A stretch of 32,000 bases of DNA from assembly GCA_942493105.1 (NCBI GenBank), contig OW818668.1, positions 510,001 to 542,000 of the forward strand, given 5' to 3'. The notes beneath the pieces were generated by a model. That model did no database searches. It worked only from the letters and a program-made list of their open reading frames with translations, and was not told the origin of the DNA. Positions within the stretch are counted from its first letter, which is position 1. Each line of letters opens with the position of its first letter. The DNA comes from an uncultured Erysipelotrichaceae bacterium (GTDB lineage: Bacteria; Bacillota_I; Bacilli_A; Erysipelotrichales; Erysipelotrichaceae). A program made the position numbers and the translations under genes. Below are positions 6,338-23,047 of the stretch, piece by piece.

Positions 6338-7420
6338 TTAAAATGTTCCCAACTCCATTATCCTATTTTCCACCCATACTGCTTCTAGAAATTGATTATA
6401 AAGGTTAGATCCACTGATCATTCTAAGATGCTTGATCTGTGTTCTATTCAAGAAAGACGCTCTTACTTCTCTTTCATTGAACGAAGTAAGATGATTAAAG
6501 AAATTCTCCTTGCTTTCACAAATTAACATGATTAAGCATCTGTAAACATCCATGGCGCAAATAATGGCATCATGAAACCTGAAATTTGTAGTTGTGAAAT
6601 AACCAAAACCAATAACTCCTCTTTTTAGTAATTTATACATTTCGTGATCCCCAAACTTACCATCGGATAAAATCAATTTACATGTATCAATCGAATCCCT
6701 CAAACAATGTTGATAATCAACTCCTTTGAGCTCGCGATACTTTATTTCCCTGTTGCATATTTCAATATATGTCTCTTTGACTAAAGCAAAATCTTTAGAA
6801 CTCCTAAAAAGCTTTGAACAATCAAATAGTTGTTTGATAATTTCAGTGGTTTTCATATCTTTGTATCTTATCCCAACTGTATTTGGAGCGAATGCAGTTA
6901 GTTTATCACCAAGCATTTCTTCGACAGAAGGAATTTTGACAGAACTCAATGGTGTTATTGTGTCAAGTAGCTCAATGGCTATGTCCTTAGTAGTCAATTT
7001 TTTATACGGATTATCATCGACGACGATATCCAATAAAACATAAGGTAAAACACCATTGTCAGATCTAATTACAGATTGGTAATAAAACTTGTAATGGTGT
7101 TTTTGAAGAAGTGATGGTTTTCGAATATCTTCTGTGATTTTGATAAATCTACTATTTAAGTGGTTTCTTATGGCTTCGCTCAATTTCGCATAATTGTCTT
7201 CACTGATCAAAATATCGATATCCACAGAAAATCGATGAAATGACTCAAACTGTAGAAGTAAGCTGCTGCCCCCTTTGAAAACAAAATCGATATCAAGCAA
7301 TGATATCGATTCAAGAAGATGAAAAGCAGTGATGACTTTTTCAATTATTTCAGATTGACCAGGATTTGTTTTGCTTTTTTGAATAATCCAATCTTTACTA
7401 AAGCTTTTCTCACTGATCAT
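6338..7420 (-). CDS. abiEii: AbiEii/AbiGii-family nucleotidyltransferase toxin (type IV TA)
   Basis: The nucleotidyltransferase-fold motifs are FVFKGGSSLLLQF...RFSVDIDILI (G-S...DxD). The protein is 360 aa. A GGGGAG RBS lies 4 nt upstream of the ATG. The gene overlaps the upstream antitoxin-like gene by 11 nt. Confidence 0.75.
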   Translation of the reverse strand: MISEKSFSKDWIIQKSKTNPGQSEIIEKVITAFHLLESISLLDIDFVFKGGSSLLLQFESFHRFSVDIDILISEDNYAKLSEAIRNHLNSRFIKITEDIRKPSLLQKHHYKFYYQSVIRSDNGVLPYVLLDIVVDDNPYKKLTTKDIAIELLDTITPLSSVKIPSVEEMLGDKLTAFAPNTVGIRYKDMKTTEIIKQLFDCSKLFRSSKDFALVKETYIEICNREIKYRELKGVDYQHCLRDSIDTCKLILSDGKFGDHEMYKLLKRGVIGFGYFTTTNFRFHDAIICAMDVYRCLIMLICESKENFFNHLTSFNEREVRASFLNRTQIKHLRMISGSNLYNQFLEAVWVENRIMELGTF

Positions 7421-8213
7421 AGAACTCCCCGGTATCTATATCAAAGCTTAAGTTACGCTCTATATATTCCTTCATAACATCTTTTTTATTTCTACTTCGA
7501 GCATATGAAAATAAAGTTTTGAAGTTAACCGCATAGTCTCTAAGTATGTTTTTAAAAATCAAATCCCTTTTAGAATCATCAATAATGGTGAGTAGTGGCT
7601 CTACAAACAAATCCATCATTATTTTTTCGATCTTAGGTGTAGACAGTGACGATTTATCACCGTGATAGTTAAGGTTAAATCCTACATGCTTACTAAATCT
7701 TTTTTTATGGGTTGGGGCTTTATAGATCAGTGTCCTAAGAATGATGGTTGAATCTAACCCTATAAATGATTCTATCTGCTCAATATTCGGTTTTAATAAT
7801 ATATTAAATTGTTTATCTCGACTTAACCTTTCTAAAACAATAGACTCAAAGCCCTTTTCAACTTCCACAAAGCAAACATTTTTAAAAATTTGCATTTCAA
7901 GAAACTGATTAAGAGACTTTAGTTCCCATACACAAATCTCTAGTTTTGGATAAATTAAACTTAGGTCAGTCAATGCAGGCAAAACGATTGGTGAAGGTTC
8001 ACTTCTGTACGTCTTTCTAGAAGATATCTTATATTTGTCAGAGCTTAGTTGATATATGATGTTCTTGCTTGTCAAATCAAAAATCGCAAAACTTTTGCTT
8101 CTGGAATTTAAAAGATCAGATTCTTCATCGATAAATTGATTTAATGTCTTTGAATCAATAACGAACCCTTCAGGGAATCTATTCTTTAGTTTTTCAATGG
8201 TTGATTTTCTCAT
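7410..8213 (-). CDS. abiEi: AbiEi-like (DUF6088-type) antitoxin and transcriptional autoregulator
   Basis: Its position is immediately upstream of AbiEii and overlapping it. The N-terminus (STIEKLKNRFPEGFVIDSKTLNQF...) resembles the wHTH lead of AbiEi/DUF6088 proteins as I recall them. Paired palindromic operators sit in its promoter. The family assignment rests on synteny plus weak motif memory. Confidence 0.55.
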   Translation of the reverse strand: MRKSTIEKLKNRFPEGFVIDSKTLNQFIDEESDLLNSRSKSFAIFDLTSKNIIYQLSSDKYKISSRKTYRSEPSPIVLPALTDLSLIYPKLEICVWELKSLNQFLEMQIFKNVCFVEVEKGFESIVLERLSRDKQFNILLKPNIEQIESFIGLDSTIILRTLIYKAPTHKKRFSKHVGFNLNYHGDKSSLSTPKIEKIMMDLFVEPLLTIIDDSKRDLIFKNILRDYAVNFKTLFSYARSRNKKDVMKEYIERNLSFDIDTGEFYDQ

Positions 8214-8355: not shown

Positions 8356-9768
8356 TCAAGCTAGAGGAATGATAAAGCTGAAGTGAGTTCCTTTATGGAT
8401 TTCACTCTTGACTTCGATTTGGATCTTATGACGATCAGCGATTCTTTTACATAATGCCAGTCCAATCCCATTGCCTTCGGTCGTATGATAGCGTACAAAC
8501 AAGGTTTTGAGCTGATCTTCACTGATGCCTTCTCCTTGATCCATGATGCTTAGGATGACCTTGTTTCCTTCTTGGTGAGCTTTTAGGGTTATGGTTGAAC
8601 CACTAGGGCTGAATTTAACGGCGTTATCAAGCACAATCATCAGCATCTGTCTAAGTCTTTGATGATCAGCTTCAATGCGCCACAAGCCTTCTTGAGTCTC
8701 ACAGGACAGTTTTAGCTTCTTGGTTTCTAGTAGTGGTTGAACAGATCGGCAAGTATCCGATAAGAGATCATGGATCTCAATGGGTTGTTTGTCGATGTTG
8801 AAATCAGGATCTTCGAGTTTACTGAGTTCAAGCAAGTCTTTGATCAGTCTTTGCATGGCTTGAGTTTCGGTGATGATTTGTTCACTGACCGCAATGGGAT
8901 CTTCATAGAGACCATCTTTGACCCCTTCAGCCAAACCACGGATGATGGTGACTGGGGTACGTAGTTCATGGGTGATGTCTGAGATGAAGTTTTGTCTCAT
9001 CTTTTCAAGATTGTCGGATTGGGTCTTGGCTTTAGAAAGACGGCTTGAAAGGATGTTGAGGTTATCTGAGAGTTGACCCAGTTCATCATTGGAGGTTTTG
9101 CTTAAAGCTAAGTTATAATTTCCAGAAGCTAAGGTATCGATGGCGTGGTTGGCTGCTTGAACAGGTTTGATGAAGTGTTTGGATAAGAAGTAACCCATGA
9201 GTGAAGCAATCAAGATGCCGATCAAAGTTGCCATCAACATTTGTCGGACCGCAATATTACTAATAGAGCTTATCGCATTAGAAGAAGCACTGATGAAGAC
9301 AGCTCCGATGATGGTTCCATTGAATGAGACAGGTGAACCTATGGTAAGGGTATCTTGATTAAAGACGCCTCTTAAGCCTTCTGAACTGATGCGTTGACCG
9401 GCTAATACTTTATCGATCATATTACGTGTCGCTGAAGCAAAAGCAGAATAATCACGCATCATGCCCATGCCCATTTTAACAGGGGTTAATCTTGAGATCT
9501 TGCCTGAAGGGTCTACGACCCATACTTGGACATCGTCTAAGGGCATACTGGATAAAACAGAGGATATCTCTTCTTTAGTAGGGGTTAAAGTTGCCTTGTC
9601 TTCCATCAGTTCTACGATCATTTGAGATTCATGAAGAAGACTGGTTTCTATGCCTTCTTTGGTTTGTCTGCGATAGGAGAAACTAAAAATGATACTGATG
9701 ACCACAGCGAAAGATAAGATGACTAAAATGAAATAGGTGACCAGTTTACGGGTGATGCCTGATTTCAT
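8356..9768 (-). CDS. Sensor histidine kinase (two TM helices, HAMP, HisKA, HATPase_c)
   Basis: The H-box is ISDITHELRTPVT. The N/G boxes are LDNAVKFSP and DQGEGIS...GNGIGLALC. TM helices are at the N-terminus and around aa 175-195, followed by a HAMP-like segment. The gene overlaps the response regulator by 4 nt (ATGA). Confidence 0.9.
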   Translation of the reverse strand: MKSGITRKLVTYFILVILSFAVVISIIFSFSYRRQTKEGIETSLLHESQMIVELMEDKATLTPTKEEISSVLSSMPLDDVQVWVVDPSGKISRLTPVKMGMGMMRDYSAFASATRNMIDKVLAGQRISSEGLRGVFNQDTLTIGSPVSFNGTIIGAVFISASSNAISSISNIAVRQMLMATLIGILIASLMGYFLSKHFIKPVQAANHAIDTLASGNYNLALSKTSNDELGQLSDNLNILSSRLSKAKTQSDNLEKMRQNFISDITHELRTPVTIIRGLAEGVKDGLYEDPIAVSEQIITETQAMQRLIKDLLELSKLEDPDFNIDKQPIEIHDLLSDTCRSVQPLLETKKLKLSCETQEGLWRIEADHQRLRQMLMIVLDNAVKFSPSGSTITLKAHQEGNKVILSIMDQGEGISEDQLKTLFVRYHTTEGNGIGLALCKRIADRHKIQIEVKSEIHKGTHFSFIIPLA

Positions 9769-10451
9769 ACTTTTTCCTCTTTTTCGAATTTATAACCGAC
9801 ACCCCATACGGTCTTTAGAGACCATCCAGGATGATCATAAGCATCGACCTTAGATCTAAGTCTAGTCATGTGTGAATCGACGGTTCTGGAGTCTCCGTAA
9901 TAGCTATAGCCCCAGCATTGATCCAATAGATTTTCACGAGAGAAAGCACGGTTAGGATTGTTGGCTAAGGTATATAAGAGTTCGATTTCTTTCTTGGTGA
10001 GTAAGAGTTCATGGGAATCGATCAAGACTTTATAAGCATCCAGATCGATGTGTAAAGAATCAATCGTGAGTTGTTTTTTATCGGTGACTTTGCCTTCTAA
10101 GCGACGCATGATGGCTTTAACACGAGCCATGACTTCAGCTGGTGAGAAAGGTTTGACGATATAATCATCAGCCCCAATATCTAGACCCATGATCCGTTCA
10201 TAGTCTTCACCTTTAGCCGTAATCATGATGATGGGAATATTGTTGGTTTGACGGATTTGACGACAGACTTGAAAGCCATCCATCTTAGGCATCATCACAT
10301 CCAATAAGATCATATCAAAGTCTTCTTTTTCAACTTTATTTAACACATCAAAACCATCGAGTGCGATGGTGACGTTATAACCTTCTTTACGAGCATAGGT
10401 TGCGAGGATAGAAGTGATTTGTGGGTTATCGTCTGCGATGAGTAGGTTCAT
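9765..10451 (-). CDS. OmpR/PhoB-family response regulator
   Basis: The receiver domain shows LIADDNP...DMILLDVMMPKMDG...ITAKG. The C-terminal winged-helix shows LTKKEIELLYTLANNPNRAFSRENLL...VDSHMTRLRSK. An AAGGGAG RBS lies 4 nt upstream of the ATG. Confidence 0.9.
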   Translation of the reverse strand: MNLLIADDNPQITSILATYARKEGYNVTIALDGFDVLNKVEKEDFDMILLDVMMPKMDGFQVCRQIRQTNNIPIIMITAKGEDYERIMGLDIGADDYIVKPFSPAEVMARVKAIMRRLEGKVTDKKQLTIDSLHIDLDAYKVLIDSHELLLTKKEIELLYTLANNPNRAFSRENLLDQCWGYSYYGDSRTVDSHMTRLRSKVDAYDHPGWSLKTVWGVGYKFEKEEKV

Positions 10452-11231
10452 AGATCTCCCTTACAAGAACATTATAGGGGGAAGATGTGACGAAAGTGTA
10501 AAGAATGAATATATTAAGTAGGTAATCCTCTAGAAGTATTTGATAGTTTGTTTATCAATTCAATTATCATTAGCTTTTTTCTGAATTCTTTAGCGAATTT
10601 AATAAATTCATTAATTCAACAACTGATAAGGCATCACTCATAAGGAAATCTCCAAGGTTAGAGAAACTATAGAATGAATCCAATAACCGCATGAACCAGA
10701 ATATATTCTGCGATGAAGACTCGTTAATTTTCTTGCTGATATATTCATGTTATTAAACAACGACAAAAGTCTATTCTCGTTGAGAAAATCGCTATGATGT
10801 TGTTCAACACAGTCGAATAGTTTATTCCCCCCCAGGATTCATCTTCTAGAATATGAATTTGGTATTGCGAATATTGTCACTAGTTGTATCTATTTAGAGT
10901 TGTGATAAGCTAGCTTTATTGGCCTAATACTAATAAAAAACTGAATTGATATTTCTGTTTATAGATTTTCATTATACCGCTTAGAATATGGGAATATTCA
11001 AAATCGAAAATGTTAAACTCTACTGGGATACTCTAACCCCATAAATGACACAAAAACAAGCATTCGAATCTAGTTAACACTTTGCATTAATATTTAGTTT
11101 ACTAATAGTTTTGTTTGAACACATTCTGTAAAGCATGAGTTCCTAATATCTGTTTCAATTTTATGACATCAAGATTCAGTTCACGATATCGTGACTCGCA
11201 CACCTTTTCTCAACTTAAAAATAAAGGTTAA

Positions 11232-12152
11232 TTACTTATATTGTTCCAATGCAACCAATAATTCTTGTATTATCTCTTGTCGTAACGAAGCCGGTTCAAG
11301 GACTTCACAATTTTTCCCAAGAGAAAGTATGAAACCTTTTGTAATATATTCGCCTTCCATTTCAGTCTCGAGGATCAATGTTTTTGAATCTAGATAGGTA
11401 ATCCTTGGATTGTTCCCAACTATGATTTCATCTACAAACCCACTATCTCGGATTTTTAGTTTCACTTTATACAATGGCAATGAAGTACCCTTTGTTACGT
11501 GAAGCGATGTCTTTAAAAATTTCTCATTCATAATCTCAAGATTTACTATTCGATTGAGTTTGTAGTTTCTCTTTTGATCAGGATTATCATCCTTTACAGC
11601 ATTGAAATACCAAGCATTATTTCTTTTCGTTAACTCAAACGGTTGAACAGTATAACTTTCGCTTTCGTCTGAATTAGGCTTATGGTATATTATTTTAACT
11701 TTAAAGCAATATTCAATCGCGTAGAGGAGTTGATCATAATATGTTGCCAGTTGTTCCTTTGGCATCGCTAAGGGAAAACCATTTACAACAGAAGAAATTA
11801 TGTCTTCAGATGCTCCACTTCTTTTCGATATTTTCTCAAGTGTGCGAATACAATCTTGTTGATTAAATATTGAGGTATCCTTTTCCATCAGTGATTTAAT
11901 ATTAAGTAATGTCTGATAGTCTTTTTGTGTAAATGGTATTCGTTGAAAAATACTTTTATTAGCAATATAGTATCCTCCATATTTTCCTTCATATTCTTCG
12001 ATTATTGCGCTCTCGTCATTGATCGCATCCTTGAGTCTCTTAACAGTTTTTGAAGAGACTCCTAAATGGTTTGCCAGTTTTTCCTTTGGTATCGGATCTG
12101 CTGAGTTTAGTAAGTGGTTTATTAATAGGTTGTAGAGTTGATAGTCTGACAT
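11232..12152 (-). CDS. HTH-WYL-domain transcriptional regulator (BrxR/CapW-like architecture)
   Basis: The N-terminal HTH is KEKLANHLGVSSKTVKRLKDAI. The WYL core is YTVQPFELTKRNNAWYFNAVKDD...RNYKLNRIVNLEI, followed by a C-terminal extension. The track start at 12164 is a TTG. The ATG at 12152 follows GGAGG by 5 nt and is preferred. Confidence 0.8.
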   Translation of the reverse strand: MSDYQLYNLLINHLLNSADPIPKEKLANHLGVSSKTVKRLKDAINDESAIIEEYEGKYGGYYIANKSIFQRIPFTQKDYQTLLNIKSLMEKDTSIFNQQDCIRTLEKISKRSGASEDIISSVVNGFPLAMPKEQLATYYDQLLYAIEYCFKVKIIYHKPNSDESESYTVQPFELTKRNNAWYFNAVKDDNPDQKRNYKLNRIVNLEIMNEKFLKTSLHVTKGTSLPLYKVKLKIRDSGFVDEIIVGNNPRITYLDSKTLILETEMEGEYITKGFILSLGKNCEVLEPASLRQEIIQELLVALEQYK

Positions 12153-12163
12153 AGATTCCTCCA

Positions 12164-12188
12164 AACCATACCCGTTTTGGGTATGGTT
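12164..12188. promoter_or_regulatory. Perfect inverted repeat; candidate WYL-regulator operator in the divergent intergenic region
   Basis: AACCATACCC (12164-12173), spacer GTTTT, GGGTATGGTT (12179-12188). This 10-bp perfect inverted repeat lies in the 77-bp gap between the two divergent start codons. Confidence 0.6.
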
Positions 12189-12205
12189 AAAGTATACACT
12201 ATACT
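12177..12205 (+). promoter_or_regulatory. Candidate SigA-type promoter for the PLD-ATPase gene
   Basis: TTGGGT (12177-12182), an exact 17-nt spacer, then TATACT (12200-12205). AGGAG (12215-12219) and the ATG at 12230 follow. The -35 lies inside the right arm of the inverted repeat. Confidence 0.45.
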
Positions 12206-12229
12206 GTGAGAAATAGGAGTGGATTGTCG

Positions 12230-14221
12230 ATGGAAAATTGCAAACTGGACTTATTTAGTGATTTCGCAGAAGAAAAGAGAACTAATTCTCTCAGTGTTGT
12301 TAAGCTAGACTTTATTGAAAGCTTCAATTCCAATTGGATGGATCTGTTTATGGGTTATAAGTTTTTGCATGCCATTACATTTTCATCACAATTATCATTT
12401 ATTGAAAAAGTCATAAAGGAGTTCAATTATGTTGAAATAATTTTTGGAAATGAAACAGTAATTGGCGAAGATATTTCTGCTGTACTTGCTTATCAACACC
12501 AAGTGATTACTCAAATAAATAACGCTCGTCCAGATATTAGGAATGAAATTATCCAGAGAATAGAAGATGGATCACTTGTGTTATGGGTTGCCAAGAAACA
12601 GCTTTCTCATGAAAAAATCTATTTACTGTCCGGTGATAAAAAAGTTGTAATTACTGGCTCAGCTAATTTGTCTTACGCTGCCTTTACAGGTCGACAGAGG
12701 GAAACTATCAACGAAATTACTGGTGATCTTGCATACAAGTATTATTTTGAACAGTTTGAAATTCTTAAGTCGACTTCATCAAATAAAGTTGAACCAAGGC
12801 ATATACGAGAGTATAAGACAAACATTATTGAAAATCTTGACAAGTTACCTATATCTGATGAAATTAAGGAAAAAAATACTGTTGAAATAATTCAAGCTGA
12901 TCCACAAAATGAATCAATTTTCTCATATTCCGTTCTTAAGGATCAAGAGAATCTAAAGCGATACATACCGCTTGATAATGTGAAAGCTAAGCTTTCATTT
13001 CCAAGTCTTATAAACTGGCAGAATAAGTACAAAATGAATAATAGTTTTAAAGATGGAGTAAAAACCGAATATCTCCCTCAACTAGAAATTGATTTTAGTC
13101 AAAAAAAGGTATTCTTGTTAGGCAGAGAACTTGATCTCCATCCACCGCTCGATGAAGTAAAAAATGATCTTCAGCTCTTCAAAGAATTCATGAAGGGTTA
13201 TGATTCCTTTAATGGTACAAAAGAAGAGATAGAGTTAGCTAAGCAAAGATATTACGCCTTTGCAAATTGGTTCTTTATTTCACCGTTATTAAGTCATTTG
13301 CGTTTACTGGCTTACCGACATAATAAGAAGCCAGATTCATTCCCAGTATTTGGTTTGCTCTTCGGGAACAGTAAAGCAGGTAAAACATCTTTTCTATCAA
13401 CCCTACTTTATTTCATGATTAAAGGCGATCCAAAGAACCCGGCACGTGATTTTACAGCGAAGACGATCAATGATATTCGATACACTGCAAAGGGCACTCC
13501 TATCATCTATGACGATATGGTTGCGAGCCGATTTAATGCACATGCAGGTGAGGTTGTCAAAAATGACTCTTATGGGTTGAACGAAGGATTAAACAACTAC
13601 CCAGCAATTGTTATAAGTGCAAATGAAGATGTCAAAGTTGTTACACAGGATCTTGCACGTCGAATTGTTACCTATCGAGTCTCAATAGGACTAGATACAA
13701 CTGAGGCTATGAAGAACAACTCAATTCGACGTATACAGAAAAACATCACAACTGCTCTATACCGTCATTTCTTGGGTATAGTTTTTGATCGCCTAGATAA
13801 TTTTATATCGCCGATGTACGACGAACATAAAGATGAATCAATTGATGTCTTCAAGTTCTCATCTGAAATCCTTATGGAGATTTTCGAAACTCTTGGTAAA
13901 GATGATATCCCTTCTTACGTTCGTAATTTAGTTATTGATGATTATTTTGATGAAAAAATTACGAGTACTTATGCAATAAAGGCAATACAAACTGCTTGGA
14001 AGTACAATCGAGATCGATTTGTAGTAAATAAAAAGCGTAATCTTTTAAGATTTAGCCTTAGCGAACAACACGAACTTAATAGAATTAAGAAGGAACTTCC
14101 CGATTCACTACAAGCAAAAGTATCTCATGATACATTGATTATGGATTTGGCCAAAGCTGTAGAATTCTTCGAAATTGATTTTCATAATTCGAACATTTTT
14201 GACCGACTACTAAATAATTAG
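12230..14221 (+). CDS. Fusion of a single-HKD PLD-family nuclease (N-terminus) and a P-loop NTPase with SF3-helicase-like motif spacing (C-terminus)
   Basis: The only HKD motif is SHEKIYLLSGD...VITGSANLS (H codon at 12608-12610). Walker A is GNSKAGKT (13364-13387). The Walker B-like motif is PIIYDDM. The motif C-like element is PAIVISANED. The track start at 12206 is a GTG. The ATG at 12230 has an AGGAG RBS 10 nt upstream. Confidence 0.7.
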   Translation: MENCKLDLFSDFAEEKRTNSLSVVKLDFIESFNSNWMDLFMGYKFLHAITFSSQLSFIEKVIKEFNYVEIIFGNETVIGEDISAVLAYQHQVITQINNARPDIRNEIIQRIEDGSLVLWVAKKQLSHEKIYLLSGDKKVVITGSANLSYAAFTGRQRETINEITGDLAYKYYFEQFEILKSTSSNKVEPRHIREYKTNIIENLDKLPISDEIKEKNTVEIIQADPQNESIFSYSVLKDQENLKRYIPLDNVKAKLSFPSLINWQNKYKMNNSFKDGVKTEYLPQLEIDFSQKKVFLLGRELDLHPPLDEVKNDLQLFKEFMKGYDSFNGTKEEIELAKQRYYAFANWFFISPLLSHLRLLAYRHNKKPDSFPVFGLLFGNSKAGKTSFLSTLLYFMIKGDPKNPARDFTAKTINDIRYTAKGTPIIYDDMVASRFNAHAGEVVKNDSYGLNEGLNNYPAIVISANEDVKVVTQDLARRIVTYRVSIGLDTTEAMKNNSIRRIQKNITTALYRHFLGIVFDRLDNFISPMYDEHKDESIDVFKFSSEILMEIFETLGKDDIPSYVRNLVIDDYFDEKITSTYAIKAIQTAWKYNRDRFVVNKKRNLLRFSLSEQHELNRIKKELPDSLQAKVSHDTLIMDLAKAVEFFEIDFHNSNIFDRLLNN

Positions 14222-14394
14222 TCTCCCATTTCTATATATAACTTGAGTTATCACTAGATTGCTATAATATCTTATACTTTAATTGACTATTTGTGAGCTC
14301 TCTGAACACTATATAAAGTTATATATTAATTCATCCTTTGGAATATGGCTTAATCAACTTGCGTTGGAATCAATGAGCGCTTGATCGATCACAG

Positions 14395-14469: not shown

Positions 14470-17400
14470 TTAAGAAGTCTCAAATAGATTAAATTCCTCC
14501 TTATTTCGTTCTGAAAAATGCTCTCTTTCGTGCGAAATTCTTGCATGTAATTGACTTAATAAATTAATTGCATATTCGTGAATTTTTGAATTTCTACTTT
14601 CAACAATATATTGAACTAGTGGAATTCGAGATGTTAATACGTCAGGTAATGTTTGATCCCAACTTCTTGGATATATCCGATCAATTAAGTTTTTGATTAT
14701 TTCTAGATTCGAAGTATTTTCAGCCTTTGAAATATAGAGTAACCCAAGATTTGTCCACGAACATTTTCCTTTGTCAATATCGTTGAATGGCAAGACGTAC
14801 TTCAATAGCAATTCATAACTATTATTCGTTTGTACCCACTTGACTAGAATCTCATCATCGATAAATGAAAGTGGACCTTGATGAAATCCATAAAACCCAG
14901 TTAAGAAATCATTTAGAAAATGACCTGAGTTTTCTGTATCATACCGGATAAATATATCAAGAAATTCTATTGGATAGTTCCTTATTATTGGCTCAAAAAC
15001 TTGATTTAAGTCACTAAACGATATGTACTCAACTTTTAAACAACTGTATAGTTTTTCGAAAATTTTTCTGGCTTGAACTTCATATTTATTTGAACCAAAA
15101 GTAGCTTTCGAGACAATTGAAAATTCATAGTTGATATGAGTATTCTTTGAAAATCGACTATCAAAGCGGTATCTCGATATAGAATCAGCTGATAAATCCA
15201 TTAATCTATCGTCAAATTTCGCCTTACTAATCGAAACACTTATAATGCTTATTTGAAGTTCAATTCCTTCATTAGTGTTTGGTACAAATTGAAAGATATC
15301 TATCATCTCTTCGATAGTTAGATCAACTAAAGTGTAGGCCAAATTCTTGAACTGTTTTAAAGATGTAGAGTCACCAACAAGTCCAGTTTTAATGAGTTGA
15401 ATAATATCACAATCAATTCTCACTGAAGATAAAAGATCTGGAAACATTCTTTTGGTTTTATCACTTGATAAAACCATTTGCATCGCTTCCTTTACTGTTT
15501 TCTTATCATCGATTTTTCCGCTTATCATACCTTTTAGCAACATAGGAGTGTTAGTATAATCTGAATTCGAGATATACTCAAAGACAGTATTAAAAAGTAA
15601 ATCAAATGGAATATCTGAACAAACAAGTCCCCTTCCAAAATATATCATTCGATAATTGTCTGACTCAAGTAACATAGAAAGATGTCTCTGAAAAAGTGTG
15701 AAATCCTTCGCAAACTGTTGGCCAATAGAAAATGCTTTCTCATCTATGTGTCTCTCATTTATATCCAAATCATCTTCTGAAATATAAACTCTTCTAGAGT
15801 TTGAAATATATACATTAAATTCATCGATTAAGTTATTTGGTTTTGTTTGTTCAGCCAAGCATTTAAGTCTCAAACGAATTGACTCTGGAATGTCTTTACC
15901 ACCAAAATGAAGAGTCTCTAAAACACTAATCCAGATTTCTGGCCAAGTTTCAGTTGTAATAACATTATTGATAATATTCTCTAGATGTCCCAACATTCCC
16001 AATTCCGTTAGTCCGGTAAAGTTATTTGATATTGTTTGTTTAAAATCACCTCTCAAATAATTATTTTCAATTTTTGATTGACAATAATCAAGAACTTTCT
16101 GGTACCAAGTTAATTGATCACCATATGTTTTTGGTTGATATCCATAGTCACGTTTCATTGCACCGAAATCAAAATTGTATCCATAAAAACTCGATGTTTT
16201 TAACATTTCATTAACTAGATGTAAACCAAAATCTGTCCGATTTGAATCGTCAGAAACAACTATTTCCTCTACAGCCTTCAATCTTTGCTCAACTGTAGCA
16301 TATGTTCCTGATAAAAATAGATGAAATAGATTTTCTACTCTATCTCTAATAGAGTATGTGTTCTCATTCTTTCCCTCCGAACAAGCGAATCTGAGAAGCA
16401 TAGAGATAACATCACTAAATCCAACATCATCATATCCGAGGAAAATGAGAATGTTAACAAAAGTATTATAATTCTCATTTTTTCTAGAAAAGAATTCCGG
16501 ATTAGTAATCGTCCCGATTCTATCTTTAATGACATCTGGGATTACAAAGGTGAGATTATAAATGATTTCAATATAAGAAGAATCGATGTTTTCAAAATCA
16601 TCAAAATAACCACTTTTATTAATAATCTCTTTTGAAGTGTTTTTTGCCTCGGTTGATGAGTGAAGAAATTTAAGTCTTCTTGAAAACGACAAAAGAGTTC
16701 TCCTATTATGCAGAAATACTTTTACAACTTCATCAGACCTATTCGCTTTTAAACATTTAATGGCCAATGCGTTTGCGAGAGCATGTGGAAGAACTGCTCT
16801 CATATTTCGTCTTACTTGAATTAACTTCATATCAACTAACAAATTAACATTCTCATAAACGTCTCGTGGGGAAATTCCGGAGATATTCGATAATATTCCT
16901 AATTCATTCTCTATGTTAAATGAAAATAGAAGTGAACACGCTTCCGCGGTCCTGGATAAAGGAACATTCAAAATATTCTGATTCATGAATAATCTGTTGA
17001 GTATTTGACTGCTGTTTAGAACCCCAATTGTTTGACTCTCGTTAATATTTGATGCCAAATATTTGGCCATTCTAAAATTCCCCCCCGACATGGAAATGAG
17101 TGTTTCTAAATTCGCGGCATTAATGTTCCCGAAATTCGATTTTATAAACATCTCTATAGTGTGATCTGAAGAAACAGACATATAGTAATTTGTCGTATCA
17201 ACTAAATCATCTTCTTTTGCATCGAACTCTATAGTAAGTAATGAAACTAAACTATTTGGGCTCTTACAGAGGTCGGATAAAACTGTATGCATATTCTTCT
17301 CACAATTATCAACTACAAGAATAATACGTTTATTGAGTTTTAGTAAATATTGAATCATTGTGATTGGTTCAGGGGTTGGATTATTGCTCATATCACAGTA

Positions 17401-18207
17401 AATTAGTATGTTAGCATCTTGAAAATTATCACCTTCATTGTTTGAGAATAATGAAAAAGCAAATCTCGTTTTCCCAACCCCGGACAATCCAGCAAGCCTA
17501 ACTATAGTACTAGGTTTTGATAATAAAATTCGAATTTCACTCAATGCAGAAACAATATCTAACTTATCAGCATCATTATATGAGTCTCTATATAGGCAAG
17601 ACTTTTCATCAAAGACCCATTCCTTTTTGAAACTAGTATCAGAATTTGACCATTCAACAAATGATAGCCATCCTGTAACATTTAGTCCCGTCCGATTTTG
17701 AACCCAAATGCACAAAGAAGGATACTCATTTACCCAAGAAACAATTTTATTGCAATCATAAAATGCAAAGGAAATTTTGCTTTCAGGATCAATGTCTACT
17801 AGACTGCAGCCAATTGCATTTTCGCGCAATATTTGTTCACGATATGTTACATCTGATCTACTGCTTGCAATAATATATTCACCATTATTTTCACGTAAAT
17901 ACGTAAAAATTTCGCGAATTTTCCCATTAGGCTTTATTTCCTCTAAAATTTTCCTATAGGTCATGTTTGGAACCTTGACCTGGATAATAGTGTTTGGATT
18001 TGAAATATAATCTTCAAAATCAAAACTGTTAGTTGACTTAACCAATACATCGACACCACCATCTTTTGCATCCTGGTTTCCACCATAATATACAGATTTC
18101 GAATTTATACCATGTTTACTTAATGTTGCTTCGCATAGTAGACCGATTAAAATCCTCAGATCTTGATCTGATAAATTTTTTATTTCAGTTTTAGTAATTT
18201 CGAACAT
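14470..18207 (-). CDS. Large STAND-type NTPase with an N-terminal Mrr/PD-(D/E)xK-like nuclease domain and a roughly 800-aa helical C-terminal region (Avs/bacterial NLR-like)
   Basis: The N-terminus carries DAKDGGVDVLV...(22 aa)...IIQVKV, matching the Mrr_cat-style D-GG-h-D...Q-x-K pattern. Walker A is GLSGVGKT (aa 240-247, about 17467-17490). Walker B is RIILVVDNCE. The GxP-like element is SGGNFRMAKYLA. A long repeat-poor, helix-rich tail follows. A GAGGT RBS lies 8 nt upstream of the ATG at 18207. Confidence 0.7.
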   Translation of the reverse strand: MFEITKTEIKNLSDQDLRILIGLLCEATLSKHGINSKSVYYGGNQDAKDGGVDVLVKSTNSFDFEDYISNPNTIIQVKVPNMTYRKILEEIKPNGKIREIFTYLRENNGEYIIASSRSDVTYREQILRENAIGCSLVDIDPESKISFAFYDCNKIVSWVNEYPSLCIWVQNRTGLNVTGWLSFVEWSNSDTSFKKEWVFDEKSCLYRDSYNDADKLDIVSALSEIRILLSKPSTIVRLAGLSGVGKTRFAFSLFSNNEGDNFQDANILIYCDMSNNPTPEPITMIQYLLKLNKRIILVVDNCEKNMHTVLSDLCKSPNSLVSLLTIEFDAKEDDLVDTTNYYMSVSSDHTIEMFIKSNFGNINAANLETLISMSGGNFRMAKYLASNINESQTIGVLNSSQILNRLFMNQNILNVPLSRTAEACSLLFSFNIENELGILSNISGISPRDVYENVNLLVDMKLIQVRRNMRAVLPHALANALAIKCLKANRSDEVVKVFLHNRRTLLSFSRRLKFLHSSTEAKNTSKEIINKSGYFDDFENIDSSYIEIIYNLTFVIPDVIKDRIGTITNPEFFSRKNENYNTFVNILIFLGYDDVGFSDVISMLLRFACSEGKNENTYSIRDRVENLFHLFLSGTYATVEQRLKAVEEIVVSDDSNRTDFGLHLVNEMLKTSSFYGYNFDFGAMKRDYGYQPKTYGDQLTWYQKVLDYCQSKIENNYLRGDFKQTISNNFTGLTELGMLGHLENIINNVITTETWPEIWISVLETLHFGGKDIPESIRLRLKCLAEQTKPNNLIDEFNVYISNSRRVYISEDDLDINERHIDEKAFSIGQQFAKDFTLFQRHLSMLLESDNYRMIYFGRGLVCSDIPFDLLFNTVFEYISNSDYTNTPMLLKGMISGKIDDKKTVKEAMQMVLSSDKTKRMFPDLLSSVRIDCDIIQLIKTGLVGDSTSLKQFKNLAYTLVDLTIEEMIDIFQFVPNTNEGIELQISIISVSISKAKFDDRLMDLSADSISRYRFDSRFSKNTHINYEFSIVSKATFGSNKYEVQARKIFEKLYSCLKVEYISFSDLNQVFEPIIRNYPIEFLDIFIRYDTENSGHFLNDFLTGFYGFHQGPLSFIDDEILVKWVQTNNSYELLLKYVLPFNDIDKGKCSWTNLGLLYISKAENTSNLEIIKNLIDRIYPRSWDQTLPDVLTSRIPLVQYIVESRNSKIHEYAINLLSQLHARISHEREHFSERNKEEFNLFETS

Positions 18208-18747: not shown

Positions 18748-20430
18748 ATGCCCACCATGTATCCTGATTTTCTTCCTAAACCACTAGAAGAGTACTTAAG
18801 GGGAGAAGCTAAAGTGTTCGAAGCTTTTAGAAACCAGCTTAGTAAAGACTGGATTGTTTATCATTGTGTGAACTGGCATATTCCTTCAGATAAACACAAT
18901 AGACAACGAGATGCTGAAACCGACTTTATCTTAACCCATCCACAATATGGAATCTTAGTGATTGAAGTTAAAGGCGGCGTTCAAATTAGATATGTTGCTG
19001 AACATAATCAATGGTTGAGTACAGACTATCATCTTAAAGTTCACGAGATCAATGATCCTTACCTACAAGCCAAACAAAACAAATACAATGTAATCAATGA
19101 ATTGCTTAAAATTCCTGAATTGAGTTTCTATGATAAACAAAGTTTAGATAATAAAATTAGTATAGGATATGCTGTCATCTTTCCAGATGTGACCATTGTG
19201 AATGGATCTTTACCTGTAGAAGCAGCTACCGAAATTACTTTGACCAGTAATCACTTAAGTCACATTGAGGAAATATTGATTTCTTTATGTACTTATTATG
19301 CTTGTGGGAAACAACACAGTACTGCTTTAGCTTTTCAAGCTCACTTGGGTTTAAAGAATCTATTGGCTCCTTCCTTTACCATTGAAAGAACACTGACAAC
19401 TTGGTTTGAAGATGAAGAGAGAAGAATCATTGAGCTTACAGATGAACAATATAACTTGCTGAATTATATAAGACTTGTCAAGAAAGCCAGTATCTATGGT
19501 TGTGCTGGTAGTGGAAAAACGTTGATTGCGATTCGTAAATCAGAATTGTTAAGTCAAGAGAATCAAGGTGTCTTGTTGGTATGCTTCAACAACATCCTTG
19601 GTAAACACTTAGAACATCACTTTAGAAAAGATGAGAATGTCGTTGCAGGATCTTTTTATAATATCCTTTGTCAAGAGTTGAAACTACCCATGACCTATGA
19701 TAACGATGCCCTACTTAAAACCAAGATCCTTGAAGATCATCCTGGTTACTTTGATGCGATCATCATTGATGAAGCTCAAGACTTCTCATCATCTCAACTT
19801 GAGATCATCAAACTATTGCTTAAACAAGATGGCTTGCTTTATTACTTCTGGGATGATAATCAACAAGTCATGAAAAGAGACATCAATGTTGAGTTTGATA
19901 AAGATGCTTTCCCACTGATCTTATCCACCAATCACAGAAATACAGCCAAGATATTTGAAGCAGTTAAACAACATTTCCACAAAGACATAGACATCACTCA
20001 TAAAGGGGTGGAAGGTCGTAATGTTGAGGTTTTAGAACCTTATAAACACAAGAATGCGACAGTATTGTTTGTTCGTCTTAGAGAGATTCTAGATCGCTTG
20101 ATTGATGTTGAAAAGATCAATCCAAAAGACATTGTTATCTTAACTTTCAAGTCTAAAACAAAATCACATTTGATTGATTTTAGTTGTGTATATCCAATTT
20201 GTCTCTTCAGTGATGAAGCTCAACCAAATGGGGTAAGAATTGATACAGTGCGTCGTTTTAAAGGCATGGAATCAAAAGTAGTTATCGTTACTGAAATGGA
20301 TGATGAGCGAAGCTTAAAGGATCCAATGATGTTTGAAGATATGTGTTATGTATCTTTCTCAAGAGCTGTTCATCACTTGATTATCTTGCCTCCGGATAAT
20401 GCTGAACTCTTTTTATCTCAATCAAAATGA
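18748..20430 (+). CDS. NERD-domain nuclease fused to a UvrD/AAA_30-type SF1 helicase
   Basis: The NERD core is DAETDFILTHPQYGILVIEVKGG. The helicase Walker A is GCAGSGKT and motif II is AIIIDEAQDF. The C-terminal motif is VDTVRRFKGMESKVVIV, followed by CYVSFSRA. No SD sequence is present. TATAAT (18736-18741) ends 6 nt before the ATG. Confidence 0.8.
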   Translation: MPTMYPDFLPKPLEEYLRGEAKVFEAFRNQLSKDWIVYHCVNWHIPSDKHNRQRDAETDFILTHPQYGILVIEVKGGVQIRYVAEHNQWLSTDYHLKVHEINDPYLQAKQNKYNVINELLKIPELSFYDKQSLDNKISIGYAVIFPDVTIVNGSLPVEAATEITLTSNHLSHIEEILISLCTYYACGKQHSTALAFQAHLGLKNLLAPSFTIERTLTTWFEDEERRIIELTDEQYNLLNYIRLVKKASIYGCAGSGKTLIAIRKSELLSQENQGVLLVCFNNILGKHLEHHFRKDENVVAGSFYNILCQELKLPMTYDNDALLKTKILEDHPGYFDAIIIDEAQDFSSSQLEIIKLLLKQDGLLYYFWDDNQQVMKRDINVEFDKDAFPLILSTNHRNTAKIFEAVKQHFHKDIDITHKGVEGRNVEVLEPYKHKNATVLFVRLREILDRLIDVEKINPKDIVILTFKSKTKSHLIDFSCVYPICLFSDEAQPNGVRIDTVRRFKGMESKVVIVTEMDDERSLKDPMMFEDMCYVSFSRAVHHLIILPPDNAELFLSQSK

Positions 20431-20473: not shown

Positions 20474-23047
20474 ATGAACCAGCATTTTGATTATATTGAT
20501 CAAGTTCTAGGCAAATACAATTATTCTCGTATCGAAACTTTTTACTATTATCCTCAAGATAAACAAATAGTTTCACTATTTTATGATTCTTCTGATACTT
20601 GTATAATCATCGATATCAATATATGTGATCAAAGGAATCCAATTTTCAACTACGAATTCTACACACAAAGACAAAACGAATATATGGCTCAATATTCACG
20701 CTGCTTTAGAATAGTTTATGATGAGAATCTTGAGCGTAAAGTAGATGAACTTTTAAATAACAATAAAGTTTTAGAGTTCTCTAAAGACTCCTATAGTCAA
20801 AGAGATACCCAATATATTGATAACTCCGCTTTGGAATCCGAATTTGAGAATCGTTTTATTGATGTTTATGGTACTGAAGCTTTGGAATTTCTATATAAGG
20901 AGTTTGGATTCTTAGATTTTGAAGGAAAACAGACTTTCTTAGATTTTGTCTTGAATACAGAAAATGGTTATGTTGCTATCGAAGAAAACGGTGTAGGTTT
21001 TCATCATCCGCAACTTATTGGTTTGGAAAAATACCAGAAACAACTTGATAAACAGAATGCATTTTGTTATTTCGGGTATAAGCTGTTCAGATTTTCTTCT
21101 ATGGATTGTGTTAACCGGGACAAAATTAACGATAATATTCGACACTATTTCGGTGATATATCCAAGTTTAAGAAAAAAGAATATGTCATGGGTACACGTG
21201 ATGTTGAACTATATGATCACCAAAAACTGACATTATCCAAGATCATAGAAGACAGAAAAAACGGGAAGTATAATTTCCTCGTTGTGTTTCCAACTGCCGC
21301 AGGAAAATCGAAAATCATTGAAGAAGATCTGAGTAGTCTTCTTGTACTCAACCCAAAATTGAAAGTTTGCATCGTAGCACCGAATAAACCCATTGTTGAA
21401 GATTGGAAGGAAAGAGTTCATAAAGTTCTGCAATCTCTGAAAATGAATCTGAGTGTTGGAGAAGGTATTGAAAATCAAATCATTTGTGCTTCATATTATG
21501 CACTATGGAATAATGCTTATACAATACGTCCAGATTTCTTTGATTACATTGTTATTGATGAGGCCCATCATGCTGCCGCACCGATGATGAGAAGAGCACT
21601 TCAATACTTCACACCAAAATATCTTGTTGGTCTTTCAGCAACACCTGAGAGGATGGACCTACAACAGATAAGCACCATTTTTGGTGAGTACCAAACTCCA
21701 TTAACTATTGAAGAAGCTATGAAAACAGGTGTCATTTCCAAAGCAAGAGCTTATCGTATAAACACTAATTTAGATTTATCTGAAGTTCGCTTCAATGGAA
21801 AGTCATTCAATAATTCCGATCTTGAGAAAACGATTCGTGTTAAGTCCAGAAATGAATTAATTGCGGATGTTATTGAAAGATATTTTACAGAGGGTGAATA
21901 TGGGAAGTTACAGGGCATTATTTTCTGTACGAGCATTGCACATACTGAAGAAATGGAAAAAATCATGAATAGACGTGGCATTCCAACTCTAGCAGCCCAT
22001 TCCTCTAAAAGAGAAGATCCTATAAAACAATATTCAGAAAAGAAAATCCGTTTTTTAGCCAGTTGTGCTCTTATTTCTGAAGGATGGGACAGTCCTCAAA
22101 CCAGCATCGTTGTTATGGCTAGACCAACCTTATCAAAAGCTCTCTACCTGCAACAGGTTGGTCGAGGTTTTAGAAGATATCCAGGTAAAGAAGCTCTTTA
22201 TGTTATCGATGTTGTGGATCAGTATGGATCATTGGCTATCCCTTGGTCAATCAACGCTATATTTCACAACCCCAATTATGTTCCATTTGGCGATCCATCT
22301 AAACAACCACATCTTGGAGATATGATTACTGTAAATGGTATTCAAGAAAAGATTCTAAGTATTCAAGAAATCAATATCAACACATTCGAGAAATCATATG
22401 GAGACATGTTGAGTAGTGAACAAGCCGCTAGAGAACTTTATACTGGAACAAACACGCTTATCAATTGGGTTAAAAATGGAACAATCAAAGCCGATCTCGT
22501 TATCCCCTTCGGTTCTTCGAAACTTTACTTCTTCAAACCGGATTCTATTAAAACGATTCGTGATCTAAAGAATCTTGGTGTTCATGATGATTCAACACTC
22601 TTTACTGACTTTTTTGAGTTTATTAAAGACAAAAAATTTAGCTTCTCATTCAAGATAATATTCATGTTGGCATTAATGAAAAACATTGACGTTAATGGTG
22701 AAGCTATGCTTGATAATGTAAGGAAATTGTATGTTCAGTTCTATCTTGACCGAATTGAAAAGGGTCTTAAAGTTGATCGAGATAATTGTATTTATACCAA
22801 GGAATATCTAAGTAATGAAAAGATCGTTGATAATAGTATTCTATCTAATCCATTTGAGAAATTTGAACGCAAACGATTTGTCTTTTACAGCAAAGATCTT
22901 TCACGCATATCATTTAATCAGACACTTTGGCTACAACTAAAAGAAAGCCATTTTATTGAGATTGAAAAAATAATGGTTAACCACCTGATAGAATATTATA
23001 GAGATATGGATGGGGTACAAGATATCCCATACCTTAGGAGATTTTAA
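20474..23047 (+). CDS. Multidomain SF2 (ResIII/DEAH) helicase with an N-terminal Vsr/DUF559-like endonuclease-fold region, a C-terminal MerR/excisionase-like HTH and an uncharacterised tail
   Basis: The nuclease-like region spans aa ~120-225 (ESEFENRFIDVYG...FLDFVL...YVAIEENGVGFH...YKLFRFSS). Helicase motif I is FPTAAGKS, motif II is VIDEAHH, motif III is LSATPER and motif VI is QQVGRGFRR. The HTH-like segment is LSSEQAARELYTGTNTLINWVKNGTIKA. The tail of about 150 aa is unassigned. Confidence 0.8.
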   Translation: MNQHFDYIDQVLGKYNYSRIETFYYYPQDKQIVSLFYDSSDTCIIIDINICDQRNPIFNYEFYTQRQNEYMAQYSRCFRIVYDENLERKVDELLNNNKVLEFSKDSYSQRDTQYIDNSALESEFENRFIDVYGTEALEFLYKEFGFLDFEGKQTFLDFVLNTENGYVAIEENGVGFHHPQLIGLEKYQKQLDKQNAFCYFGYKLFRFSSMDCVNRDKINDNIRHYFGDISKFKKKEYVMGTRDVELYDHQKLTLSKIIEDRKNGKYNFLVVFPTAAGKSKIIEEDLSSLLVLNPKLKVCIVAPNKPIVEDWKERVHKVLQSLKMNLSVGEGIENQIICASYYALWNNAYTIRPDFFDYIVIDEAHHAAAPMMRRALQYFTPKYLVGLSATPERMDLQQISTIFGEYQTPLTIEEAMKTGVISKARAYRINTNLDLSEVRFNGKSFNNSDLEKTIRVKSRNELIADVIERYFTEGEYGKLQGIIFCTSIAHTEEMEKIMNRRGIPTLAAHSSKREDPIKQYSEKKIRFLASCALISEGWDSPQTSIVVMARPTLSKALYLQQVGRGFRRYPGKEALYVIDVVDQYGSLAIPWSINAIFHNPNYVPFGDPSKQPHLGDMITVNGIQEKILSIQEININTFEKSYGDMLSSEQAARELYTGTNTLINWVKNGTIKADLVIPFGSSKLYFFKPDSIKTIRDLKNLGVHDDSTLFTDFFEFIKDKKFSFSFKIIFMLALMKNIDVNGEAMLDNVRKLYVQFYLDRIEKGLKVDRDNCIYTKEYLSNEKIVDNSILSNPFEKFERKRFVFYSKDLSRISFNQTLWLQLKESHFIEIEKIMVNHLIEYYRDMDGVQDIPYLRRF

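Follow-up and report, generated by a model that had tools for sequence, protein, structure and literature searches.

In a 32,000-nucleotide (nt) stretch of the genome of an uncultured Erysipelotrichaceae bacterium (the window), two divergently transcribed genes flank a perfect palindrome. One encodes a 663-amino-acid (aa) protein in which a phospholipase D (PLD) nuclease domain is joined to a P-loop ATPase of superfamily 3 (SF3) type, and the other a regulator of the helix-turn-helix (HTH)-WYL-WCX type. That the first protein is a fusion of a PLD nuclease with an SF3 ATPase is very likely; that it is a defence effector, and that it is controlled by the WYL protein acting at the palindrome, are each likely, and we place the chance that all three hold together somewhat above even. 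The fusion protein is probably a DNA endonuclease that works on its own, is driven by nucleotides and acts as a one-gene effector of anti-phage or anti-plasmid defence. ATP-coupled PLD defence nucleases and WYL repressors are both known. In the sources that we searched, what is new is an SF3 motor in cis with the nuclease; also new in the build are the lack of any recognised reader domain, the autonomy of the gene, and a cassette that has a candidate operator and a slot for cargo genes. The characterised ATP-coupled PLD defence nucleases (SauUSI, CglI/NgoAVII and MtsD) all use superfamily 2 (SF2) motors, whereas the motor here is predicted to be a ring ATPase of SF3 type, which elsewhere is part of the replication proteins of viruses, plasmids and satellites.

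Domains, conservation and spread of the fusion protein

The two open reading frames (ORFs) on which an earlier note on this DNA was based are present (11232-12164 on the - strand, 310 aa; 12206-14221 on the + strand, 671 aa), and all of the motifs that it quoted (HKD, GNSKAGKT, IIYDDM and the ANE segment) can be read from the sequence. The fusion gene most likely occupies 12230-14221 (+), starting at ATG 12230 in preference to GTG 12206, which opens the longest ORF. We favour the ATG because a ribosome-binding site (AGGAG, 12215-12219, +) lies 10 nt ahead of it and because of the lengths of the homologues, which are 659-671 aa long, the closest one (P0001, 94% identity) having 663 aa. No comparable ribosome-binding site precedes the GTG. 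Residue numbers below refer to the 663-aa form; adding 8 converts them to the 671-aa numbering of the earlier note.

An AlphaFold2 model of the full-length protein (predicted local distance difference test score, pLDDT, 77.8) has four parts: a PLD domain, a linker, a P-loop domain and a C-terminal helix/strand domain. The PLD domain (approximately aa 20-190; 12287-12799, +) is delimited by Pfam, Foldseek and the secondary structure of the model. In Pfam, aa 112-192 match both RE_NgoFVII (28.6 bits, cut-off 23.8) and PLDc_2 (27.6 bits, cut-off 27), and in a Foldseek search of PDB the N-terminal part of the model matches R.NgoAVII (4rct_A; E = 6e-4, probability 1.00, 195 columns). These matches bear out the identification of the domain as a restriction-type PLD nuclease with a single HKD. 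There is indeed only one HKD motif, SHEKIYLLSGDKKVVITGSANLS (aa 126-148; 12605-12673, +; H127, K129, N146), which is the sole place in the protein where HxK is followed by GSxN; beyond it comes GRQRETI (12689-12709, +), which contains E158. The D of the classical HxKxxxxD pattern is Ser or variable in the fusion protein family, and it is not known to be strictly kept in the restriction-enzyme branch of PLD proteins.

Single-HKD domains must pair to form an active site, and the chemistry of BfiI and Nuc proceeds through a covalent histidine intermediate. The fusion protein resembles these two enzymes in having one HKD per chain and an H/K/N/E constellation (H127, K129, N146, E158), and metal-independent chemistry is expected of a Nuc/BfiI-like PLD domain. 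By this analogy, dimerisation of the PLD domains and cleavage of DNA are predicted for the fusion protein. Nuc and BfiI are, however, small ATP-independent enzymes, whereas here the PLD domain is tethered to a motor through a linker of about 95 aa (approximately aa 191-284; 12800-13081, +), which is modelled with low confidence (pLDDT 40-65) and has low column conservation.

Behind the linker lies the ATPase module (aa 285-569; 13082-13936, +), consisting of a beta-hairpin, a long helical collar, a P-loop core and a helical lid; in the full-length model the P-loop domain is preceded by the beta-hairpin and two long helices. Modelled separately, aa 285-663 give a better result than within the full-length protein (pLDDT 87, predicted TM-score 0.85). 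The C-terminal part of the full-length model matches SF3 helicases in PDB. With the aa 285-663 model the top PDB matches are Cch of SCCmec (5dgk, 1.7e-5), JCV/SV40 large T, ASFV PrimPol, vaccinia D5, SaPIbov1 Rep, B19V NS1, E1 and Rep40, with probabilities of 0.9-1.0; a few other AAA+ proteins (Rubisco activase and Vps4 among them) appear alongside the SF3 helicases. In BFVD, phage primase-helicases of the DUF927/D5/P4 type are on top (4.6e-6). The sequence motifs are packed into a core that spans about 100 aa (coordinates on the + strand): Walker A GNSKAGKT (aa 379-386, including K385; 13364-13387), Walker B PIIYDDM (aa 424-430, with D428 and D429; 13499-13519), the SF3 motif C or sensor 1 IVISANED (aa 460-467, with N465; 13607-13630), and R477-R478 (13658-13663), a candidate arginine finger whose role we presume by analogy with SF3/AAA+ ATPases. 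Because SF3 helicases predominate at the top of the searches with probabilities of 0.9-1.0, and because motifs A, B, C(N) and Arg are spaced in SF3 style, an SF3-type ATPase is supported by modelled fold and by motifs, and not by membership in a curated SF3 sequence family; the sole Pfam ATPase match of the protein is AAA_25, at E = 0.1. Fold searches and motif pattern thus agree with the earlier suggestion of an SF3/D5-like P-loop module. By analogy with such proteins, the module is predicted to form a hexameric ring and to unwind DNA or translocate along it. The C-terminal domain that follows (aa 570-660; 13937-14209, +) has a winged-helix-like topology in the AlphaFold2 model (H-H-H-E-E-H-E-E-H, pLDDT about 90) and contains invariant residues Y572, F573, E575, T578, R618, E622 and P624.

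Both catalytic halves are strongly conserved. In an alignment of 33 homologues, reaching down to 39% identity, the invariant positions include S126-H127-E128-K129, G143-S144-A145-N146 and E158 in the PLD domain, and G379, S381-T386, D428-D429, I462-D467 and R477-R478 in the ATPase. Among 102 full-length cluster representatives, most of which have 25-45% identity to the C-terminal region of the query, Walker A is kept in 100 and the strict HxK...GSxN pattern in 86, most of the others still having HxK(I/L)YLL. Judged from these alignments the conservation of the motifs is not due to chance, and the P-loop region is not the degenerate, non-conserved segment that the earlier note had named as a way in which its proposal could fail. 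The family is large: more than 1,300 homologues of about 660 aa came up in a word-indexed search, and an exhaustive HMMER search for which only the C-terminal 379 residues served as the query gave 419 clusters at 50% identity. In the full-length proteins among the best 150 of these 419 clusters, the match falls at approximately residues 285-660 of proteins of about 650-690 aa, so the ATPase module essentially always lies behind an N-terminal region of about 285 residues, where the HKD motif is still present in at least 86 of the 102 representatives. On this alignment evidence the PLD-ATPase architecture is fixed across the family.

The fusion protein belongs to no named system in the sources that we searched, in agreement with the earlier note. 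It has no significant match in PADLOC-DB 2.0.0 (the best are DrmC, E = 0.011, and ZacB, E = 0.012, both to the PLD segment only), none in NCBIfam or PHROGs, and none among PDB sequences whether the protein or a 33-sequence profile is used as the query; the literature searched contains nothing relevant on a PLD + SF3 fusion in defence. The family is also not found in the 50,697 phage records that we scanned. The description of the family as undescribed stands in that no named defence system in these sources covers it, but it goes too far in that Pfam PF27394 and NCBI names already cover its members. PF27394 ('Aq_aa27', uncharacterised) is the sole family label for the C-terminal half, from the precomputed annotation of homologues, and we found no description of it in the literature; the NCBI or source names are 'NgoFVII family restriction endonuclease', 'phospholipase D family protein' and 'restriction endonuclease PLD domain-containing protein'. 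The 419 clusters come mostly from gut and rumen anaerobes, and the spread of the family is patchy: Bacillota, Kiritimatiellia, Bacteroidota, Spirochaetota and Fibrobacterota (a Chitinispirillia metagenome-assembled genome), with plasmid-borne members in Acetobacteraceae, Thermotogota and Thermus. Distant relatives, with 21-27% identity, are plasmid-borne in Acetobacter, Komagataeibacter, Athalassotoga, Arcobacter and Thermus, and have toxin-antitoxin genes and recombinases as neighbours.

The WYL regulator, the palindrome and the cassette

The regulator gene (11232-12152, -) encodes a 306-aa HTH-WYL-WCX protein. Its longest ORF reaches TTG 12164, and its start is most likely ATG 12152, because a ribosome-binding site (GGAGG, 12158-12162, -), read from the sequence, precedes that codon and the homologues are 306-307 aa long. 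The protein matches Pfam WYL (1.6e-9), WCX (8.2e-9) and HTH_11 (1.4e-3, under the Pfam cut-off), and two PADLOC WYL models (1.3e-20 and 4e-19); its sole PDB sequence match is a weak one to PafBC (6sj9, E = 4.8e-4). Seven homologue clusters have at least 59% identity to it (306-314 aa), after which identity drops to 30% or less.

To define the neighbourhood of the fusion gene we scanned one genome per GTDB species, which yielded 161 loci of the family, and analysed 80 of these with up to 8 kb of flank; together with the window they make 81 loci. A phmmer search with the WYL protein of the window caught only L001, and the neighbours were rescanned with Pfam and a custom WYL profile. A WYL gene lies within 3 kb of the fusion gene in 4 of the 80 loci (L001, L032, L037 and L040), or about 5 of 81 with the window, so the family as a whole is not a regulator-effector pair. 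The pairing that the earlier note proposed is nevertheless strict within the clade of the window, which we define by a nuclease identity of at least 58%: every clade locus with enough flank has a linked WYL gene (the window, L001, L081-L085 and L089-L092). From the other direction, the WYL homologues with at least 59% identity that we looked up are all on the divergent side of a PLD-SF3 gene (L081, L082 and L089-L092); P0269, P0270, P0273 and P0274 were read in their neighbourhoods, and P0271 and P0272 were placed there by inference. L083-L085, which were found through the nuclease, share this arrangement. A WYL homologue at 27% identity (P0277) adjoins an FtsK-like gene instead. Gene order therefore makes the regulator subfamily look dedicated to this nuclease within the window's clade, and not across the family. 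Elsewhere in the family, unrelated WYL genes lie beside distant members in other orientations: L037 (2623-3621) and L040 (6534-7541) have one of a different lineage in a co-directional, BrxR-like position (the gap in L037 is 12 nt), and L032 (7560-8519) also has one, which suggests that WYL regulators have been recruited to this effector repeatedly and independently.

The two genes of the window are separated by only 77 nt (12153-12229), and this intergenic region contains a perfect 10-5-10 palindrome, AACCATACCC-GTTTT-GGGTATGGTT (12164-12188), which is a candidate operator. The window has no second copy of it even when 3 mismatches are allowed, and the number expected from shuffles is 0. The palindrome is seen in 10 related loci (L081-L086, L089, L090, L092 and, as a half-site, L001). 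In the 8 that were aligned (L081-L083, L086, L089, L090, L092 and the half-site in L001) it lies about 40 nt upstream of the nuclease ATG with its arms kept. The 5-nt spacer varies among relatives (GAAAT, TTTAA, TGTAC, TTTTT), and the few changes in the arms are uncompensated. Arms that are kept, a spacer that is free and arm changes that are uncompensated fit a site for a dimeric protein, not an RNA stem. We rejected an RNA hairpin or terminator as an identity for the palindrome on account of the uncompensated changes and the lack of a T-run.

The palindrome and the nuclease travel together. The locus L081 shares 11048-14259 with the window at 90% nucleotide identity (blastn) and its flanks are unrelated on both sides, so we take 11048-14259 as the limits of a two-gene cassette comprising the WYL regulator, the candidate operator and the nuclease. 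Other relatives are longer: in L082-L086 and L089-L092, between 2 and 5 unannotated genes on the divergent strand separate the palindrome from the WYL gene. These cargo genes (for example L082:1609-4976, L083:4482-5845, L089:2735-4098 and L092:3092-6916) comprise a core pair of 345-353 aa and about 101 aa and, optionally, DUF6508 (160 aa), HI_0787_N (328 aa) and a 335-aa protein. Similarity between the window and the cargo-bearing relatives breaks exactly at 12152, the ATG of the WYL gene, and resumes at 12164, the first base of the palindrome, which means that the palindrome and promoter block stay with the nuclease, at the front of a divergent operon whose last gene is always the WYL gene. 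The cassette offers a minimal model of WYL control, with one regulator, one 25-bp candidate operator and one effector, of which there are natural variants carrying cargo between candidate operator and regulator gene.

Some side observations concern the ends and the contents of the cassette. The cargo genes may be a second defence cargo under the same candidate operator; neither they nor the genes downstream of the nuclease in close relatives have a PADLOC match. The stretch behind the WYL gene in the window (10452-11231, about 780 nt) has no ORF of at least 60 aa and no Rfam match, and its part at 11048-11231 is kept with L081 as the tail of the cassette. After the nuclease, three close relatives have a trio of unannotated convergent genes (576-629, 153-167 and 54-94 aa; L081:8298-10759, L082:7100-9629, L083:8009-10552), and past the trio in close relatives come a Peptidase_S24-like gene of 418-422 aa and recombinases. 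The trio is missing from the window, which has an Avs8 gene in its place.

By eye, a possible nuclease promoter can be tentatively placed at 12177-12205 (+; TTGGGT-17 nt-TATACT), with its -35 element within the palindrome. A -10-like TATACT for a transcript in the WYL direction lies 2 nt upstream of the palindrome (12191-12196, -); it is also a tentative assignment by eye, and it has no recognisable -35 element, and it reads TATAAT in the alignment of relatives L082-L092. That the best -10 element beside the palindrome faces the WYL gene would suit an arrangement in which the WYL protein regulates only its own cargo-bearing operon and the nuclease is expressed constitutively from an independent promoter. 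The WYL operon of relatives does carry other cargo that the protein could control, and most members of the family manage without a WYL gene. However, only about 41 nt lie between the palindrome and the nuclease ATG, so any nuclease promoter must overlap the palindrome; the pairing persists in the window and in L081, whose WYL operon has no cargo; and the only consistent linkage of the close WYL homologues examined is to this nuclease. We consider regulation of the WYL operon alone to be distinctly unlikely.

We favour control of both genes by the WYL protein. In the window's clade, a dimer of the HTH-WYL-WCX protein would bind the palindrome at 12164-12188 and repress both divergent units, since the palindrome overlaps the presumptive -35 region of the nuclease as well as the start of the regulator's own transcript. 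A ligand derived from infection or damage would then bind the WYL domain and lift repression, as described for regulators of the BrxR/CapW type. The window's regulator is like BrxR and CapW in its HTH-WYL-WCX domains, in its position beside a putative defence gene and in the palindrome in its promoter region, and the divergent layout resembles that of CapW-CBASS. It differs in that its sequence relationship to them is weak and in that its subfamily is small (7 clusters) and tied to one effector family. WYL repressors co-localise with defence systems and control them (PMC9122601, PMC9122589, PMC13622015), and such regulators are documented beside diverse defence systems (PMC9122601).

Neighbouring genes, function and related systems

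We called ORFs in the 80 loci and clustered the neighbours of the fusion gene all-against-all. No neighbour cluster occurs in more than 12 loci, so the nuclease has no conserved partner and appears to be an autonomous effector. The largest cluster (12 loci) is of SauUSI-like PLD-ResIII-DUF3427 proteins, which are an independent Type IV system; others are Schlafen group-3 helicases (7 loci), AlbA_2/HATPase_c_4 proteins (4 loci), NERD proteins (4 members) and GmrSD (3 loci). Among the 97 nearest large neighbours, PADLOC recognises mREase_IV (11), PDC-S41 (5), PDC-S01 (4) and HEC-05 (3). There is no conserved methyltransferase beside the nuclease in the 80 loci, and the scattered type I and type II ones belong to other systems. 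In the window, too, the earlier statement that no DNA methyltransferase is adjacent is correct: the closest ORF that resembles a methyltransferase lies at 23048-23647, where it forms a pair with another helicase. An autonomous, horizontally mobile gene embedded in defence islands has the usual circumstantial signature of a defence gene. The window's cassette lies in an island of about 23 kb behind housekeeping genes (S41 peptidase, PcsB-like protein, FtsX, FtsE, YitT and VanZ), between AbiE and Avs8/PD-lambda-4 systems, with Azaca further along.

The nearest of these neighbours is a full-length homologue of PD-Lambda-4_A (14470-18207, -; PADLOC E = 3.2e-178, residues 1-1239 of 1245), which is convergent with the nuclease gene at a distance of 248 nt. 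A 2026 preprint renames PD-Lambda-4_A as Avs8, a STAND sensor of the phage major capsid protein (10.64898/2026.01.04.697583). This proximity could mean that the fusion protein is an accessory or second component of Avs8/PD-lambda-4, and the NCBI name 'NgoFVII family restriction endonuclease' on its relatives could mean that it is an orphan R subunit of a classical restriction-modification (R-M) system. Against the former, an Avs8 homologue is present in only 1 of the 81 loci (the window itself), the shared cassette ends at 14259, ahead of the Avs8 gene, the nuclease has no PADLOC PD-Lambda-4 match, and Avs8 has been described as a STAND protein that combines sensor and effector in itself (10.64898/2026.01.04.697583). 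Against the latter stands the lack of a linked methyltransferase, both in the window and in the 80 loci. We therefore rejected both roles, which seem to us very improbable.

A different role for the fusion protein is suggested by its structural relatives. It could be an initiator of replication, mobilisation or transfer of a cryptic mobile element, in which the PLD domain nicks at an origin through a phosphohistidine and the SF3 helicase unwinds from the nick. It would then be an analogue of the HUH + SF3 Rep proteins of parvoviruses and CRESS viruses, or of the primase-SF3 proteins of satellites and SCCmec, with PLD replacing the HUH tyrosine nickase. The best C-terminal structural matches are nearly all replication proteins, including the SaPI5 primase-helicase; PLD enzymes use a covalent histidine intermediate; close relatives lie near genes for tyrosine integrases or serine recombinases, and distant ones are plasmid-borne. 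The 80 loci, however, contain no conserved mobile-element module (integrase, primase, origin repeats or partition genes), and the neighbours are variable and mostly defence genes. The family is missing from the phage records and from PHROGs, both of which are rich in SF3 replication proteins. The window's cassette has defence systems on either side, within a chromosomal island beside ftsEX, and the 32 kb contain no recombinase. By its Pfam family, moreover, the PLD domain is of the restriction type that cuts both strands, and repeated recruitment of WYL regulators is typical of toxic defence genes. An initiator of this kind seems improbable to us. A hybrid of the two ideas is possible, in which a defence enzyme using this chemistry loads as a ring at phage replication intermediates and destroys them.

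For the defence effector that we prefer, the following mechanism can be proposed. The SF3 module would oligomerise into a ring, as SF3 helicases do, and the ring would load onto DNA and use ATP to translocate or unwind. The PLD domains would thereby be brought together in pairs, two single-HKD domains making one active site, and the paired domains would cut the DNA. As there is no conserved methyltransferase, self-protection cannot rest on cognate methylation; it must instead lie in the substrates that the enzyme prefers (modified DNA, replication-type structures or free ends), in keeping the enzyme off, or in both. The modification-dependent, damage-induced or abortive logic to which the earlier note pointed may apply.

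The ATPase need not be a motor in such an effector. It could be a switch like those of STAND or other AAA+ proteins, in which a nucleotide or a phage cue causes oligomerisation that pairs the PLD domains, leading to indiscriminate degradation of DNA and abortive infection. Since an active site needs two single-HKD domains, oligomerisation might be enough to activate them. The system consists of a single gene with no recognised domain that reads modification or sequence, the tight transcriptional repression that we infer in the window's clade suggests toxicity, and the island neighbours Avs8 and AbiE act by abortive logic. On the other side, no element of the SF3 catalytic set varies (Walker B DD, sensor-1 Asn and Arg-Arg), which argues for cycles of hydrolysis over mere binding; no sensor domain (tetratricopeptide or other repeats) is present; and SauUSI and CglI hydrolyse nucleotides for translocation (PMC7913695, PMC5861437). 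We see a switch as possible but unlikely, and favour a nuclease that would translocate along DNA or unwind it.

Among the closest known systems is SauUSI, an ATP-dependent Type IV enzyme of Staphylococcus aureus with a PLD-SF2-TRD (target recognition domain) chain, whose PLD active site forms by dimerisation and which has no methyltransferase (PMC7913695). Like it, the fusion protein is a single chain with an N-terminal single-HKD PLD domain, then an ATPase motor and then a C-terminal domain, here with a predicted DNA-interacting role, and is autonomous and without a methyltransferase; SauUSI-like genes are, as noted, its commonest neighbours. It differs in having an SF3/AAA+ module where SauUSI has an SF2 helicase (Pfam finds no ResIII, Helicase_C or DUF3427 in it) and in its expected stoichiometry, which would be a ring of six as against a dimer. 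NgoAVII and CglI are three-gene systems, consisting of a methyltransferase, an R protein (PLD with a B3-like reader) and an N/H protein (SF2 DEAD-Z1) (PMC4267653, PMC4267654, PMC5861437, PMC5737866), in which cleavage depends on nucleotide hydrolysis (PMC4267653). They share the PLD Pfam family (RE_NgoFVII) and fold (4rct) with the fusion protein, whereas the latter is one chain of SF3 type with no recognised B3 domain, no DEAD, ResIII or Z1 match and no linked methyltransferase. MtsD of MANTIS (Gao_RL) is likewise an ATPase-coupled PLD nuclease, a PLD-SF2 defence protein with one PLD site per dimer (10.64898/2026.09.23.753747), but it has an SF2 motor and needs MtsABC and a methyltransferase, whereas the fusion protein is autonomous and SF3-type. 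In its motor the fusion protein instead resembles the SF3 replicative helicases (Cch, SaPI Rep/primase-helicase, D5/E5 and phage DUF927/P4-alpha), which provide the best fold for aa 285-663 and have the same compact layout of Walker A, Walker B, motif C(N) and Arg. Those proteins have primase or origin-binding N-terminal domains and replicate elements, whereas the N-terminus here is a nuclease; moreover, the fusion protein lacks a Pfam sequence match to them, and its family is absent from the phage records scanned.

Several observations count against the interpretation that we favour. The TM-scores of the SF3 matches are low, at 0.26-0.44 (0.26-0.39 in the PDB search of aa 285-663), and no Pfam SF3 family (Pox_D5, DUF927, Parvo_NS1, PPV_E1_C or similar) matches at E up to 1. 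Every close structural relative of the ATPase is a replication protein, and none is a defence protein. Neither Pfam nor the AlphaFold2 model reveals a modification-reading or sequence-reading domain in the fusion protein, and the defence role is argued from neighbourhood and domain logic. About 94% of the family loci are without a nearby WYL gene, so transcriptional gating cannot be the general safeguard. Binding of the regulator to the palindrome is proposed from position and conservation, and a consensus scan for promoters and terminators called neither of the intergenic promoters, finding sites in numbers similar to those in shuffled sequence; the promoter assignments are tentative for this reason.

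If the fusion protein is a defence effector, a replicative-helicase module would have been taken over from mobile elements for use against them. The protein would also pose a new structural problem, that of how nuclease domains which work in pairs are arranged by a ring with six-fold symmetry, and it would add to the defence catalogue a compact one-gene system with 419 clusters at 50% identity.

Other genes in the island

The left edge of the island is an AbiEi/AbiEii pair (6338-8213, -), a toxin-antitoxin defence system consisting of a DUF6577 protein and a nucleotidyltransferase. Between it and the WYL cassette, a histidine kinase and an OmpR-type response regulator (8356-10451, -) could be passengers or could be regulatory. 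No Rfam family and no tRNA was found in the window.

To the right of the Avs8 gene, 18748-20430 (+) encodes a NERD + UvrD-like helicase that matches PADLOC 'RTasNERD-Hel' (E = 5.7e-89), a type associated with defence-associated reverse transcriptases (DRT); a reverse-transcriptase gene is not evident among the neighbouring ORFs. It is followed at 20474-23647 (+) by an 857-aa ResIII/SF2 helicase, which is mREase_IV/PbeA-like and whose N-terminal 240 aa or so are without assignment, and by a 199-aa S-adenosylmethionine-dependent methyltransferase with a partial 'mad2' match. The methyltransferase gene abuts the helicase gene, stop and start touching, and the two are probably a two-gene unit. Beyond them lies a complete Azaca system (23863-29754, -), in which the matches to ZacA, ZacB and ZacC have E-values of 2.8e-91, 1.6e-135 and 1.5e-271.

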